Below are positions 805 to 7,865 of a stretch of DNA of 7,865 nt, piece after piece. Where the stretch lies: the IMG/VR virus record IMGVR_UViG_2602041549_000002; one strand, written 5' to 3'. The stretch comes from a virus. Its lineage: Duplodnaviria > Heunggongvirae > Uroviricota > Caudoviricetes. Within the stretch, counting starts at the first letter, position 1. Each line of letters begins with the position of its first letter. A program made the translations under genes and the position numbers. Below the pieces are notes generated by a model that saw nothing but the letters and a program-made list of their open reading frames with translations, did not search any database and was not told where the DNA came from.

Positions 805-1225
805 GTCTTACCCCCAATAAGGGGATTTGCTCTATTTGATTAGGAATAAGGTCGGTTACTGATAGAACAAATCCAGGCTACTGTGTTTAGTAATCAGATT
901 TGTTCGTGACCGATATGCACGGGCAAAACGGCATGAGGTTGTTAGCGCAGCCTCTTGCCACCCGCTTTCACGAAGGTCATGTGTAGAAGGCCGCAGCGTA
1001 ACTATCACTGATGAATTCAGGATAGCCAGTGGCTACGGCTCAGTTTGGGTTGTGCTGTTGCTGGGCGGCGATGACGCCTGTACGCATTTGGTGATCCGGT
1101 TCTGCTTCCGGCATTCGCTTAATTCAGCACAAAAGGAAGAGCGCTAGCCTACCTCTATCGATTAACGGGCTTGTGGGGCAGTATCGCCGATTCACCTAAC
1201 GCTCTTCCCTTTGTGATTGTAACGC

Positions 1226-1253
1226 AAAAAGCCCCGAGCTATTAACTCAGGGC
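1226..1253 (-). terminator. Intrinsic terminator downstream of pR' (tR'-equivalent); also hairpin plus T-run on the plus strand, so possibly bidirectional
   Basis: Minus-strand RNA GCCCUGAG-UUAAUAG-CUCGGGGC (8 bp stem with one G-U pair, 7 nt loop) followed by UUUUU. It lies about 55-60 nt downstream of the predicted pR' start. Confidence 0.6.
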
Positions 1254-1289
1254 TTTATTTAACGAGTGCATTTATCCATCGTTGAGTCA

Positions 1290-1318
1290 AATTTACCCAA
1301 CTTTATTCAAAAAGTCAA
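1290..1318 (-). promoter_or_regulatory. Late promoter pR' with overlapping Q-utilisation (qut) region
   Basis: Minus strand reads TTGACT (1318..1313), 17 bp spacer, TAAATT (1295..1290), then ..CAACGATGG.. in the initial transcribed region. This matches lambda pR' and its pause-inducing element as I recall them, and sits immediately downstream of Q. Confidence 0.8.
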
Positions 1319-1360
1319 TATTATGCCGTTAATATGTTGCCATCCGTGGCAATCATGCTG

Positions 1361-4704: not shown

Positions 4705-5141
4705 GCAGCCCGATCTCCCCATCTCGCTTTCCACTCCAGAGCCAGTCTCGCTTCGTCTGACCACTTAACGCCACGCTCTGTACCGAATGCCTGTATAAGC
4801 TCTAATAGCTCCGCAAATTCGCCTACACGCATCCTGCTGGTTGACTGGCCTATTACCACAAAGCCATTCCCGGCAAGGTTAGGAACAACATCCTGCTGCT
4901 TTAATGCTGCGGTAAACACACACTTCCAGCTTTCTGCATCCAGCCAGCGACCATGCCATTCAACCTGACGAGAGACGTCACCTAAGCAGGCCCATAGCTT
5001 CCTGTTTTGGTCTAAGCTGCGGTTGCGTTCCTGAATGGTTACTACGATTGGTTTGGTTGGGTCTGGAAGGATTTGCTGTACTGCGTGAATAGCGTTTTGC
5101 TGATGTGCCGGAGATCGAATTTCAAAGGTTAGTTTTTTCAT
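4701..5141 (-). CDS. ninB: NinB (Orf-family recombination mediator of the nin region)
   Basis: 146 aa ORF MKKLTFEIRSPAHQQNAIHAVQQILPDPTKPIVVTIQERNRSLDQNRKLW..., recognised as lambda NinB. Good Shine-Dalgarno (GAGGGAAG) upstream of the ATG at 5141. Confidence 0.9.
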   Translation of the reverse strand: MKKLTFEIRSPAHQQNAIHAVQQILPDPTKPIVVTIQERNRSLDQNRKLWACLGDVSRQVEWHGRWLDAESWKCVFTAALKQQDVVPNLAGNGFVVIGQSTSRMRVGEFAELLELIQAFGTERGVKWSDEARLALEWKARWGDRAA

Positions 5142-5334
5142 GACTTCCCTCTCTAACAGATTTCAGGTTATTCCACTCCGTTACCGCACTGCGATAATTC
5201 GCGGCCGCCACAGCGGCGTGGTTAGCGCAGTAGATTTGGCACCCGTTCTCCATGTCGAATATTGTCGGTAATTTTCCGCATTTACATTTTTTGGCACGCG
5301 GTGCGTCTGAACACATTCCGTTAACGGTGTCCAT
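5122..5334 (-). CDS. Small Cys-rich hypothetical protein (possible zinc-ribbon), 70 aa
   Basis: ORF MDTVNGMCSDAPRAKKCKCGKLPTIFDMENGCQIYCANH... with five cysteines (C8, C17, C19, C32, C36). Strong Shine-Dalgarno GAGGGGG about 6 nt upstream of the ATG at 5334. Its 3' end overlaps the ninB start by 20 nt. Not present at this position in lambda, where ren/tR2 lie upstream of ninB. Confidence 0.5.
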   Translation of the reverse strand: MDTVNGMCSDAPRAKKCKCGKLPTIFDMENGCQIYCANHAAVAAANYRSAVTEWNNLKSVREGSHEKTNL

Positions 5335-5419: not shown

Positions 5420-7300
5420 TTAATACTCCGTCACGTTTTCCTGTCGCCACGCCTCGTCATATTCCGATTTCGGCATATTGGCGATGTAGCTATAAGGCGA
5501 TCCTGATTCAAGTTGCAGGAACTGGTGCGATTGCTCGTCAAGGAACAACGGGACACCACCTTCCCAACCTTCGCCGTTACGTTGTTTTTCAAGCATCAAA
5601 ACAGATGCCGGAGATGCCAGTAGCTGTTCGTCCTTCTCTGACATCTTTTCACCACTCTGAACTCTCTGTAACGCTCTCTCGCGAGCCTTGTTACGCCAGA
5701 TGATAAAAAGGTTGTCTGTCAGGTCTGTTATCGCTCCAGAGCCTTTTACGTCCATTTTCCCGGTTGGTTTTTCTTCGCTATCTCCTTTTCTGGAGTGAGT
5801 AACGAGAATGACGTGGGAGTTTGTTTTGTTTTTGAAATCGCAAATCGAGTCAACAAATGCTTTCTGCCCGTTATAGTCATCGTCACCTATGCCGCATTTC
5901 ATCAGGCTGTCGATGATGAATAACTGGATGCCGTATCGGCGGCGAGCGTAGTCGAATATTTCGATCAGCCTGTCGGCTTTCGCCGTTCCAGTCAGGCCAA
6001 ACACCCAAAGTCTTTCGTCATAAAATTTAAATGCAGAGTCAATTTCCAGCACTGGCGGCATCTTGCAGCACGTCGCCTGACGGGTAAGGCGCTTAAGGAG
6101 AATACCAGGCTTCAGCTCAAGTGACGCGATGCACGTCTTCACACCCTGACGCATTGCCTCAAGTGCCATATGCCCGACAACCTCCGTTTTTCCGTGACCG
6201 TTCACACCATTGACCAGCGTCAACTCGGCCTCACGAAACTGGAATTTATCTGCCAGAGATTCCCACGGTGGATTAAACAGATACTGCTGCTTGCCGTAGA
6301 AAGCGTTGATAGTGTCCTGGTAAAACTCTCGCGCGCTGTAGAGTTCTTCAGGATCAAAGTAGGATGCCGTGCCGATGTACTGCCAGATTTCATCCTCGGT
6401 AACACCGTTCATCAGGCATTCGTTGATGTCTTTGTACGGCAGAGTAACAAGACGGCAACGATGTTCACCGAGTCGGCTTGCGATTTCCCTTGCGGCTTCA
6501 CGACCAACATCATCAACGTCCATCGAGATGAATATTTCCTCAAACCTGTCGAGGTTGTGGTACTCAAACTCAATCCACTGTTGCTTAGCGCCTTTCCCTC
6601 CACCAAACGGCACGGATAACGCCGAGATGCCGTATTGCGCATAGCTCATACAATCAATTTCGCCTTCGCAAAGTACAACCGCCCTCACGCCAGCGTCCAG
6701 AGCCTGCCATCCGAACAGACAAGGTTCGCAATCACCTTCTGCCATAATGACTTTCTTCCCGTCCGGGCGCTCAGCGCTGATTCGCTTGACCTGCAACAAC
6801 TCACCATCGCGTTTGTACGGAAGCACCAGTGCATCAAGTTCTCGTTCTCCATTCCACACCTTGCCGCTGACAACCTCGTAGCGCTTTACGACTTCTGGCG
6901 ATATGCCACGCGATTGCAGGTACTCAAGATGGGATTCTGTTCTGGTAACGTAGCGGGCGATTTTCTTGCGATCAGGTCTGGAGAATTTTTTCTCACGTTT
7001 GGCATCGAAATGGTGATCGTCATCCTTGATACCGAGAAATGCTTTCGCTTCCTGCATAGCCTGATGCAGGTTAATTCCACGACATGCCATCCACAAATCA
7101 AGCATGTCACCGCCGTCTCCCTCAGCGAAATCAGCCCATTTTTTCTTGCCGCTAAGGTTGACCTTAAGGCTGTTTCCCTTGTCACCGTTGACGTTACCGG
7201 CAACCCACTCATGCCCCTCTTTCTTGCCGTTTGGCAACAGGTGCGGAGCCACCCTGTCAACCTGCGCCCAAAGCAGGTCGCTGAGTTCACTTGGCCTCAT
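5420..7300 (-). CDS. Bifunctional DNA primase-helicase (Toprim/DnaG-like primase fused to DnaB/SF4-like P-loop helicase; T7 gp4-like architecture)
   Basis: 626 aa ORF. Toprim acidic motif VVLCEGEIDCMSY. Walker A GVNGHGKTE, Walker B LFIIDSL, then HVILVTHSRK and KGSGAITDLTDNLFIIWR resembling DnaB-family H3/H4 motifs. Shine-Dalgarno GAGGGA upstream of the ATG at 7300. Replaces lambda O/P. Confidence 0.85.
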   Translation of the reverse strand: MRPSELSDLLWAQVDRVAPHLLPNGKKEGHEWVAGNVNGDKGNSLKVNLSGKKKWADFAEGDGGDMLDLWMACRGINLHQAMQEAKAFLGIKDDDHHFDAKREKKFSRPDRKKIARYVTRTESHLEYLQSRGISPEVVKRYEVVSGKVWNGERELDALVLPYKRDGELLQVKRISAERPDGKKVIMAEGDCEPCLFGWQALDAGVRAVVLCEGEIDCMSYAQYGISALSVPFGGGKGAKQQWIEFEYHNLDRFEEIFISMDVDDVGREAAREIASRLGEHRCRLVTLPYKDINECLMNGVTEDEIWQYIGTASYFDPEELYSAREFYQDTINAFYGKQQYLFNPPWESLADKFQFREAELTLVNGVNGHGKTEVVGHMALEAMRQGVKTCIASLELKPGILLKRLTRQATCCKMPPVLEIDSAFKFYDERLWVFGLTGTAKADRLIEIFDYARRRYGIQLFIIDSLMKCGIGDDDYNGQKAFVDSICDFKNKTNSHVILVTHSRKGDSEEKPTGKMDVKGSGAITDLTDNLFIIWRNKARERALQRVQSGEKMSEKDEQLLASPASVLMLEKQRNGEGWEGGVPLFLDEQSHQFLQLESGSPYSYIANMPKSEYDEAWRQENVTEY

Positions 7301-7404
7301 GATTCCCTCAGATTGAGATTTTTAAACCAGAAATCGACAAACGAAATACTTAACCAGCCGTGGTTATAACCAGCGACCAGTAGCGATTTGATTTTTGATT
7401 TCAT
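7297..7404 (-). CDS. Possible 35-codon micro-ORF bridging the two replication genes (not in the supplied ORF track)
   Basis: ATG at 7404..7402, 3 nt after the upstream gene stop and preceded by AGGTGA. Encodes MKSKIKSLLVAGYNHGWLSISFVDFWFKNLNLRES; its TGA overlaps the primase-helicase ATG (ATGA). Could equally be non-coding leader sequence. Confidence 0.2.
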   Translation of the reverse strand: MKSKIKSLLVAGYNHGWLSISFVDFWFKNLNLRES

Positions 7405-7407
7405 GGT

Positions 7408-7865
7408 TCACCTGTCGAAAAACACGTAGCCAGTTTTCGATACGGTGATTGCGGATGATGGTTTGGATTGTGGTTGAATGGTTTCTGGCTTCTCGTCGTT
7501 CCAGCGCTGACCGTTCAGGTAGCTCGATGGTAACAACCTGTCGAATCCGAACTGCTTACCATTCCTGCATGCGATGTCTTCTGCCAGCATCGTGGCAAAC
7601 TCGCTTGCCGTACCCTTGGTAGTTTTACGCCATTCCCTGAACTGTGTTCTGAATGCCGAAGCTGCGTTTTTCTTCCCGGCTTTCCGCATGCCTGCACACC
7701 AGAATATTTCCTCGAATGCCTTGTCGGTTTCTTCGTGACGGTCAGGTGATTTTTCACACTCTGTTCGGACATGTTCGAACATAATGTTTTTAGGTTCATT
7801 GACTGGTTCAAAAGAGTGATAGGTTCTGGGGGCAGCTCCTGCCCCACCCCCCCGGGCAGCTCCTG
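7408..7865 (-). CDS. Replication protein, C-terminal part only (probable replication initiator or helicase-loader partner; N-terminus lies beyond the window end)
   Basis: The frame is open from the window edge with no in-frame stop upstream of the listed ATG at 7782. The C-terminal region ...FEEIFWCAGMRKAGKKNAASAFRTQFREW...LLPSSYLNGQRWNDE resembles, from memory, the conserved C-terminal domain found on phage replication initiator / replisome-organiser proteins. Located immediately upstream of the primase-helicase. Confidence 0.5.
   Translation of the reverse strand, partial: GAARGGGAGAAPRTYHSFEPVNEPKNIMFEHVRTECEKSPDRHEETDKAFEEIFWCAGMRKAGKKNAASAFRTQFREWRKTTKGTASEFATMLAEDIACRNGKQFGFDRLLPSSYLNGQRWNDEKPETIQPQSKPSSAITVSKTGYVFFDR
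7830..7865. repeat. GC-rich direct repeat (GGGCAGCTCCTG x2, 24 bp period) at the window edge; possible iteron-like element
   Basis: Exact 12-mer GGGCAGCTCCTG at 7830..7841 and 7854..7865, separated by a C-rich spacer CCCCACCCCCCC. Lies inside the open reading frame of the replication protein, where it would encode a Gly/Ala/Pro-rich linker. Confidence 0.3.

Follow-up and report, generated by a model that had tools for sequence, protein, structure and literature searches.

Which protein takes over the replicative role in a lambda-type prophage when the gene in the lambda P position does not belong to the lambda-P family? This question is raised by the 7,865-nucleotide stretch of Caudoviricetes DNA analysed here (the window), in which that position is occupied by a gene for a protein of 626 residues. 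An earlier description made from the letters alone (the sequence-only reading) had taken this protein to be a Toprim primase core fused to a C-terminal SF4-like helicase, preceded by a separate replication protein and standing instead of lambda O and P. As argued below, the product of the gene is very probably a primase-helicase of the T7 gp4 / Twinkle family that replicates a lambdoid (P22-like/Sf101-like) prophage by the mechanism that we propose. The features of the region are listed in Table 1.

Table 1. Features of the replication region, with positions counted from the first letter of the window.
Feature	Position	Strand	Basis or remark
Primase-helicase CDS, complete, 626 aa	5420..7300	-	ATG start; ORF list, Pfam, PHROG 239, phmmer, Foldseek
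Predicted DnaG-type zinc-binding-domain (ZBD) fold without metal ligands, residues 1-93	7022..7300	-	G35, N38, D57, E60 at the C, H, C, C ligand places
N-terminal subdomain of RNA-polymerase (primase) domain (RPD), residues ~104-200	6701..6991	-	TIGR01391 stretch and conservation
Toprim catalytic subdomain, residues 209-296	6413..6676	-	E212-G-E214-x-D216; D261-x-D263; D291
SF4 RecA-like helicase domain, residues 355-594	5519..6238	-	Pfam AAA_25/DnaB_C, T7 gp4 alignment, conservation
C-terminal tail, residues 595-626, ending ...SEYDEAWRQENVTEY	5423..5518	-	Low model confidence
35-codon gene (MKSKIKSLLVAGYNHGWLSISFVDFWFKNLNLRES), equivalent to ES18 gp60 / phrog_21848	7297..7404	-	Stop overlaps the primase-helicase ATG (ATGA)
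O-type replication initiator, 3' part (C-terminal domain)	7408..7865	-	Frame open to the window edge; phrog_33384, phrog_270 'replication initiation protein'
Origin iterons inside the initiator gene	7830..7865		Complete 21 nt copy GGGCAGCTCCTGCCCCACCCC at 7830-7850; first 12 nt of a second at 7854-7865, cut by the window edge

The open reading frame, Pfam and PHROG 239 agree with the sequence-only reading on both halves of the protein, the Toprim core around CEGEIDCMSY (residues 211-220) and the C-terminal SF4 helicase. Pfam places Toprim_2 at residues 209-296 (E 3e-12), AAA_25 at residues 357-507 and, with a score under its cut-off, DnaB_C at residues 355-594, while PHROG 239, named 'DNA primase/helicase', matches with an E of 4e-171. 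In a phmmer search of the PDB, T7 gp4 aligns over residues 191-539 (E ~1e-23) and Twinkle matches with an E of 2e-14. The full-length AF2 model, of moderate confidence (pLDDT 71.8), has human Twinkle, T7 gp4 and Aquifex DnaG as its top Foldseek matches, the structural alignments to Twinkle and T7 gp4 being near full-length. Both this model and the Pfam and NCBIfam coordinates give a single polypeptide with the order ZBD, RPD/Toprim, linker and helicase. No SF3 family (D5_N / AAA+ viral) was reported for the protein, whose helicase part is of the SF4 DnaB_C/AAA_25 kind; it thus differs from the P4 alpha and D5-type primase-helicases, which carry an SF3 helicase. This evidence supports the assignment to the T7 gp4 / Twinkle family, as a Toprim primase fused to an SF4 helicase.

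Conservation of the catalytic residues was assessed in a MAFFT alignment of 94 relatives with 35-55% identity to the protein. The Toprim residues E212, E214, D216, D261, D263 and D291 are kept in 86-94 of them, and those that align with E157, D207/D209 and D237 of T7 gp4 in the phmmer alignment (E212/E214, D261/D263 and D291) in 92-94, so that the primase core read from the letters holds up at its acidic positions. Ahead of the Toprim domain, residues 26-143 match profile positions 27-155 of TIGR01391 dnaG (NCBIfam), P161, K172, K182, K183, P193 and L195-W198 are kept in at least 80% of the 94 relatives, and DnaG-like motifs II and III, assigned by eye, can be recognised (LPYKRDGELLQVKRI; GKKVIMAEGDCEPCLFGW). 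Since the acidic residues persist in such distant relatives beside recognisable motifs II and III, selection on catalysis is indicated. The helicase half is also complete: the Walker A, Walker B and H3/H4-like motifs claimed at the outset were all found and are kept among the relatives. Walker A (GVNGHGKT, with K371) spans residues 365-372 and Walker B (LFIIDSL, with D464) residues 460-466, accompanied by H1a E395, H3 H502/K505, an H4 loop at 517-527 and a DnaB-like KQRNG with R574. K371, E395, D464, H502 and K505 are kept in 90-92 of the 94 relatives and R574 in 84. The T7 gp4 helicase alignment reaches residue 539; R574 is a candidate arginine finger, assigned by eye from the DnaB and T7 motifs.

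The N-terminal domain is the part of the protein that departs from the expected pattern. The sequence-only reading had remarked that the Cys4 zinc ribbon is missing, and indeed the first 100 residues hold a single Cys (C73), none of the four zinc ligands and no canonical ribbon. The ligand columns of the B. stearothermophilus DnaG ZBD (C40/H43/C61/C64) align by hhalign to G35/N38/D57/E60, and no Cys/His majority is seen at these four columns among 103 aligned sequences (the query and its best-scoring full-length relatives). The region is widespread, retrieving on its own 2,738 cluster representatives at E<=0.001. Whether it forms a zinc-independent template-recognition domain had been raised as a question, and in the AF2 model it takes a DnaG-type ZBD fold without the ligands. 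Profile support for this homology is weak (Pfam E 0.063, hhalign probability 64%); a PDB profile search found no DnaG ZBD match to the N-terminus and a Pfam scan of residues 1-204 found no family. Mainly on the strength of the predicted structure, the domain can be described as a probable DnaG ZBD fold devoid of metal ligands.

The loss of the ligands bears on how far the primase may be active, since the ZBD of T7 gp4 is required for template-directed priming. Human Twinkle, which lacks ligands and has no primase activity (PMC4417153), points the same way, so that priming by the present protein could be weakened or altered. At the extreme, the protein might be a helicase only, its primase vestigial as in metazoan Twinkle and its N-terminal half serving in structure or loading, with the host DnaG making primers. 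All four ligands are lost across the family, human Twinkle is one of the top structural matches, and a precedent for the division of labour exists in the P22 gp12 helicase, which uses host DnaG according to Wickner (1984), as cited in PMC8022706. What makes this alternative improbable is the state of the catalytic centre. In human Twinkle most metal-coordinating residues are gone from the RPD as well as from the ZBD (PMC4417153), whereas here the Toprim acids are intact to the extent given above and motifs II and III can still be read. As a family feature, zinc ligands are typical but not universal, as metazoan Twinkle is an accepted member and also lacks them (PMC4417153). We would tentatively go further, giving the proposal slightly less than even weight: a very large family of gp4-like proteins in bacteria and prophages may have an ancestral zinc-free DnaG ZBD in which C/H/C/C is replaced by a conserved G...D, together with an intact primase site, and the small, translationally coupled protein described below may serve it in Enterobacterales as a minimal factor for loading or for coupling the initiator to the helicase.

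A replicative role also requires that the gene be seen in its context. A separate replication protein does precede the primase-helicase as had been stated, but only its 3' part lies in the window (7408 to beyond 7865). The claim that lambda O and P are both replaced is correct for P and not for O, as an O-type initiator with iterons in its own gene is retained. The iteron pattern has one match in the window and none in 200 shuffles, and Stx2a_F451 has three tandem copies of the same iterons at the homologous place. An A+T-richer stretch, read by eye at ~7770-7820, adjoins them. The last 73 bases of the window match the F451/HTH_36 type of initiator, unlike Sf101, mEp043 and ES18, where the initiator bears a lambda-O-type N-terminal domain. 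The initiators of F451 and Sf101 have in common only their C-terminal ~125 residues, beside the helicase gene; their N-terminal DNA-binding domains differ (HTH_36 in F451 vs Phage_rep_O in Sf101), and so do the iterons. This C-terminal domain is not similar to lambda O (E 0.77); it had been considered as a diverged lambda O C-terminus, a view that was given up.

Between the initiator and the primase-helicase lies the 35-codon gene, matched by phrog_21848 with an E of 4e-26. It is annotated in ES18, is kept open in F451 with synonymous changes, and shows 42-100% identity across 27 genome loci, abutting the primase-helicase start every time. In Enterobacterales loci, down to ~52% identity, this gene and the initiator C-terminal domain stand directly upstream of the primase-helicase. 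A strict coupling of the C-terminal domain to the helicase was rejected: three loci (L021, L024, L026) have the small gene and no match to the domain, and in three others (L012, L031, L032) the domain is reduced to its last 20-41 residues. Co-inheritance of the domain could reflect no more than physical linkage. The 35-residue protein may, by prediction, take part in helicase recruitment.

It is highly improbable that the gene in the P position encodes a lambda-P-like loader or adaptor delivering host DnaB. Its place, and the GenBank records of phi24B and Min27 that name it 'P', would suggest such a function; the label is merely positional, and the domain content already contradicts it, with no lambda-P family match in Pfam or PHROGs and a full SF4 motor comprising Walker A/B, H3, H4 and KQRNG. 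Just as improbable is an accessory function, such as an anti-phage or superinfection-exclusion ATPase-nuclease in which Toprim would act as the nuclease: Toprim domains do occur also in nucleases and defence systems, e.g., OLD-family proteins, but the best matches, specific and full-length, are to primase-helicases, the place of the gene in the early-right operon is fixed, directly after the iteron-bearing initiator, and the annotated replication regions of Sf101, F451 and ES18 contain no further helicase or loader.

The replicative reading can be put together as follows. The O-type initiator would bind the 21 nt iterons in its own gene and melt the adjoining A+T-richer DNA. Its C-terminal domain, inherited with the helicase gene, would recruit the primase-helicase, possibly with help from the 35-residue protein. 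The primase-helicase would then form a ring on the ssDNA by itself, dispensing with a loader of the lambda-P or DnaC type; a scan of 10 window ORFs gave no protein of either type, nor do the annotations of the replication regions of Sf101 and F451 include one. Once loaded, the SF4 domain would drive 5'->3' unwinding through NTP hydrolysis and the Toprim domain would make RNA primers for extension by the host DNA polymerase III, while the metal-free ZBD fold presumably still helps in holding or handing over the template. The sequence-only reading had expected less dependence on host DnaB and DnaG, and independence from both can reasonably be predicted from such an enzyme. Biochemical or genetic data on this primase-helicase or its close relatives were not found in the searchable literature, nor was anything specific on phi24B or ES18 primase-helicase experiments, on the intein mentioned below or on zinc-less prophage ZBDs.

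The C-terminal tail had been likened to the partner-binding tails of phage helicases, and in T7 gp4 the polymerase is bound by an acidic tail whose last residue is aromatic. The window protein has a moderately acidic tail (...SEYDEAWRQENVTEY) with Tyr as its last residue and pLDDT <50 at residues 598-611 and 622-626 of the AF2 model. The likeness survives as a compositional trend only: acidic tails that end in an aromatic residue recur in 14/94 relatives, whereas 2.3% of internal 12-residue windows taken from these proteins fit that description. Tails differ completely among the 35-55% relatives and the sequence is kept only within Enterobacterales, so that, as far as sequence goes, the tail was not accepted as a conserved peptide for partner binding.

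The combination of lambda-type genes with a primase-helicase, singled out by the sequence-only reading, is not unusual when set beside other lambdoid prophages. The neighbouring NinB, Dam, NinE, NinG and Q are lambda-type (Pfam), and NinH, a NinI-like phosphatase and the endolysin could be named through matching records of Sf101 and relatives. Nucleotide identity is 97-99% to Sf101, mEp043, Stx2a phages, phi24B and Min27 and 88% to ES18, and the primase-helicase gene is found in 296 of 5,426 complete E. coli genomes. Its counterparts are Sf101 gp45, the 'P' of phi24B and Min27, and ES18 gp61, which is annotated 'putative primase/helicase; similar to phage T7 gene 4'. The pairing of initiator and primase-helicase recurs in F451, Sf101 and ES18, where the latter gene lies between cII/initiator and ninB, and the full order of initiator, 35-codon gene, primase-helicase and nin genes is identical in ES18 (gp59-gp60-gp61), Sf101 (gp44-gp45) and Eru5 phages. 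In some phages the P-loop is interrupted by an intein; the F451 allele, which is of this kind, has 968 aa, whereas the window allele is intein-free.

The module has also been typed. Eru5 is defined by two replication genes beside cI, an HTH (HTH_36) protein and a primase, with Stx2a_F403 (AP012529) as type phage (Fagerlund et al. 2022, PMC8951638). The primase-helicase and the C-terminal part of the initiator match AP012529 at 97%, the initiator N-terminus and cI lying outside the window. Eru1-3 were rejected as the matching type, since the proteins that they encode (DEAD-box helicase, Toprim and DUF1367; AAA ATPase; DnaB; Llarena 2021) are unlike those of the window. Judged by these matches, the replication module appears to be Eru5-type, which does not imply a Stx-phage location: the Q-to-holin interval (805-1360) has only one ORF, of 50 aa, so stx genes do not fit there. 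The replication gene is an ordinary one, already catalogued and typed and common in lambda-like prophages, and there is little new in the module as such.

The cassette is common in prophages of E. coli, Shigella and Salmonella, Stx2a phages among them, for which links have been drawn between the type of replication module and both the stability of lysogens and virulence typing (PMC8044961, PMC8951638). If the module can indeed do without host DnaB and DnaG, as predicted, this would matter for replication-targeted strategies against Stx phages. Two points could merit a small follow-up, the zinc-free DnaG-type ZBD beside an intact primase centre and the 35-residue protein coupled to the primase-helicase. 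Should zinc-free enzymes prime efficiently, they would exemplify DnaG-type template recognition without metal, and the family would offer a natural system for asking what zinc contributes.

Set against known systems, the window protein matches T7 gp4 (PDB 1q57, 5ikn, 6n7i) in plan, both being one polypeptide running from ZBD through RNA-polymerase/Toprim and linker to SF4 helicase (Foldseek E ~5e-19). The E, DxD and D of Toprim can be aligned between the two, as can H1, H1a, H2, H3 and H4 of the helicase. Twinkle, the mitochondrial and plastid primase-helicase (PDB 7t8b, 7t8c, 8e2l), is likewise a homologue; the plant enzyme is an active primase with a functional zinc finger (PMC10557236, PMC5737085), which the window protein lacks. 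With lambda O/P and P22 gp18/gp12 the module has in common its genome position and its layout, iterons inside the initiator's own gene followed by one gene for helicase function. The difference is in that second gene: in lambda it encodes P, which loads host DnaB, and in P22 gp12, a DnaB-type helicase working with host DnaG (PMC8022706), whereas here its product joins helicase and primase in one protein. The module is thus a further instance of lambdoid replication-cassette exchange, alongside O with P and an O-like initiator with a DnaB-like helicase, in which an O-like initiator is joined to a primase-helicase.

The sequence-only reading had described a fused Toprim primase and SF4-like helicase set among lambda-type late, lysis and nin genes, and its description of the sequence is correct, since the ORF, its domains, its motif and the neighbouring genes were all found. 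The full protein matches phrog_239, 'DNA primase/helicase', in PHROGs (E 4e-171), while Pfam places Toprim_2 at residues 209-296 (E 3e-12; CEGEIDCMSY lies at 211-220), AAA_25 at residues 357-507 and, slightly below the cut-off, DnaB_C at residues 355-594. In sequence searches, residues 191-539 match T7 gp4 (E about 1e-23) and the protein matches Twinkle (E 2e-14). An AlphaFold2 model built with 31 homologues as input (pLDDT 71.8) has human Twinkle as its top Foldseek match (E 5e-20, about 610 columns aligned), followed by T7 gp4 and then Aquifex DnaG.

Features of the replication module and its surroundings, in window coordinates
Feature	Position	Strand	Remarks
Q-to-holin interval	805-1360		about 556 bases, one 50 aa ORF
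70 aa Cys-containing ORF	5122-5334	-	phrog_6308; just downstream of primase-helicase, overlaps ninB start
Downstream mosaic joint	5419/5420		HK544 and IME10 homology stops one base past primase-helicase stop codon
Primase-helicase ORF	5420..7300	-	626 codons
H4 to KQRNG region	5519-5690		residues about 538-594
Intein insertion point of Stx2a_F451	about 6185-6187		codon T372; window allele intein-free
35-codon gene (MKSKIKSLLVAGYNHGWLSISFVDFWFKNLNLRES)	7297-7404	-	stop overlaps primase-helicase ATG (ATGA)
Initiator frame	7408 to beyond 7865		open up to window edge
Upstream mosaic joint	about 7792		within initiator gene, iterons on one side, C-terminal domain on the other; Sf101, mEp043 and ES18 homology stops
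F451-type iterons	7830-7865		one full 21 nt copy and 12 nt of a second, cut by window edge

The primase-helicase is an ordinary replication gene that has been catalogued before. Comparison with other lambdoid replication modules gave 97-99% nucleotide identity to Sf101 gp45, mEp043, several Stx2a phages, phi24B and Min27, the last two of which label the gene 'P' in their records, and 88% to ES18, whose record gives gp61 the description 'putative primase/helicase; similar to phage T7 gene 4' and marks gp59 as O-like, with the origin inside the gene. The window as a whole is 98% identical to Sf101 across 88% of its length. The gene is present at >=95% identity in 296 of 5,426 complete E. coli genomes, and a single 90% protein cluster holds 5,632 member sequences. 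The module of phage Stx2a_F403, 97% identical to the window, has been classified as replication type Eru5, consisting of an HTH_36 protein and a primase (Fagerlund et al. 2022; PMC8951638).

Both active sites can be read against T7 gp4. Toprim residue E157 corresponds to E212 (with E214), D207/D209 to D261/D263 and D237 to D291, and Walker A, H1a, Walker B, H3 and H4 of the helicase are all shared. Among 94 full-length relatives at 35-55% identity, collected by an exhaustive search with residues 1-200, E212, D261 and D291 are each kept in 94/94, and the helicase residues K371, E395, D464, H502 and R574, the last within a DnaB-style KQRNG motif, in 92, 91, 90, 92 and 84, respectively. This near-invariance points to purifying selection on both active sites, which argues for a predicted functional primase and a predicted functional helicase. 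By eye, H4 and KQRNG are separated by a helical stretch of ~25 residues (RERALQRVQSGEKMSEKDEQLLASPAS, 540-566); in T7 gp4 the two motifs lie much closer together, and the HMMER alignment to T7 gp4 ends at residue 539.

As claimed, a separate replication protein precedes the primase-helicase, and its frame matches the replication-initiator families phrog_33384 and phrog_270. The proposal that the module stands instead of lambda O and P holds for P and fails for O: these family matches, together with iterons inside the initiator's own gene, indicate that an O-type initiator is kept, the replacement being confined to the P function. The complete Stx2a_F451 initiator has 258 aa with HTH_36 at its N-terminus, whereas that of Sf101 has 286 aa and a lambda-type Phage_rep_O domain, the two being alike only in the C-terminal ~125 residues. 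The iterons differ as well, yet occupy the same place within the gene: F451 has GGGCAGCTCCTGCCCCACCCC in three copies (L001 7444-7509), and Sf101 has a TGTC..GTTTTGGTGACA repeat in two (L002 6442-6483). Compared with lambda O, the initiator C-terminal domain shows no similarity.

The two mosaic joints delimit a travelling unit formed by the initiator C-terminal domain, the small 35-codon gene and the primase-helicase. The small gene equals ES18 gp60 (phrog_21848), lacks annotation in the Sf101 and F451 records, and is conserved as a protein at 27 genome loci in several Enterobacterales genera, always abutting the primase-helicase start (consensus MKS+IKSLLIAGYNHGLLSxxFVRYWFxKLxLRxx; core G-Y/H-N-H/Y-G). 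Across 79 genome loci, the initiator C-terminal domain is found immediately upstream of the primase-helicase gene in Enterobacterales until primase-helicase identity falls to about 52%, and is undetectable in Legionella and alphaproteobacterial relatives; three loci (L021, L024, L026) have no match to it, and at three others (L012, L031, L032) it is reduced to the last 20-41 residues. In the lambda model, the C-terminal half of the initiator is specific for the helicase partner, and the co-inheritance seen here, as linkage evidence with exceptions, would fit that model. Among GTDB species-representative genomes, the best primase-helicase match (99%) is not in Escherichia but in Shimwellia pseudoproteus DSM 3038 (NZ_WBXP01000045.1), where the small gene is 97% and the initiator C-terminal domain 96% identical; near-identity of all three parts suggests that the module has recently moved between genera.

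A replication pathway can be proposed in which the initiator would bind its own iterons and open the adjoining A+T-richer DNA, and its C-terminal domain would recruit the gp4-like ring helicase, which could load without P or a DnaC-type loader. The helicase would then travel 5'->3' while the Toprim domain primes. Primers would presumably be extended by a host polymerase, because the replication regions of Sf101, F451 and ES18 carry no annotated DNA polymerase and lambdoid phages in general are not known to encode one. That the module would not depend on host DnaB and DnaG is a plausible prediction. A literature search found no experimental paper on this replication module.

Outside the primase-helicase, the window is a typical lambdoid early-right/late region lying entirely on the (-) strand, with Pfam support for NinB, Dam methylase, NinE, NinG and Q; NinH, a NinI-like phosphatase, holin and endolysin were named after matching Sf101 and related records. 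In Stx phages, the stx genes are located between Q and holin, an interval that here has no room for them despite the Stx2a-phage-type replication module. In F451, the gene at the position of the phrog_6308 ORF, immediately preceding ninB, carries the annotation 'Lar-like restriction alleviation protein'. The F451 primase-helicase allele (L001 4005-6911) reaches 968 aa because its Walker A loop is interrupted between K371 and T372 (GHGK/A...HN/TEVV) by a 342-residue intein (Hint and LAGLIDADG homing endonuclease); several more Stx phage matches likewise fall in two pieces with a gap of ~1 kb.

The acidic/aromatic C-terminal tail (...SEYDEAWRQENVTEY), proposed to resemble partner-binding tails, recurs in composition only. 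Its sequence is conserved in close relatives and not at 35-55% identity, while an acidic last dodecamer with a terminal aromatic occurs in 14/94 relatives versus 2.3% of the 12-residue windows taken from inside these proteins (p about 4e-8 in a binomial test, an optimistic value because the sequences are related and C-termini are compositionally distinct). A putative partner-binding tail is possible.

The N-terminus has a DnaG-type zinc-binding domain (ZBD) fold whose metal site was lost early in a large family (2,738 cluster representatives of the region at E<=0.001). The Cys4 zinc ribbon is absent, as had been noted, C73 being the sole Cys among the first 100 residues. Positions 27-155 of the NCBIfam dnaG model align to residues 26-143, Pfam Zn_ribbon_DnaG matches weakly (E 0.063) in the same register, and residues 1-100, modelled separately with 51 diverse homologues, reach pLDDT 90.8. 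When the sequences of 1d0q and 2au3, taken from the PDB, were aligned to the family profile, the DnaG ligand columns C/H/C/C (C40, H43, C61 and C64) fell on G35, N38, D57 and E60. In 103 aligned sequences (the query and 102 relatives), G occupies position 35 in 99 and D position 57 in 98, positions 38 and 60 are variable, and no ligand column has a Cys/His majority. The dnaG register, the high-pLDDT model and these substitutions together indicate a ZBD fold without a metal site and not a different domain. Metazoan Twinkle has likewise lost the ZBD ligands; most of its primase metal-binding residues are missing too, and it is devoid of primase activity (PMC4417153), whereas the catalytic centre of the phage primase-helicase is intact.
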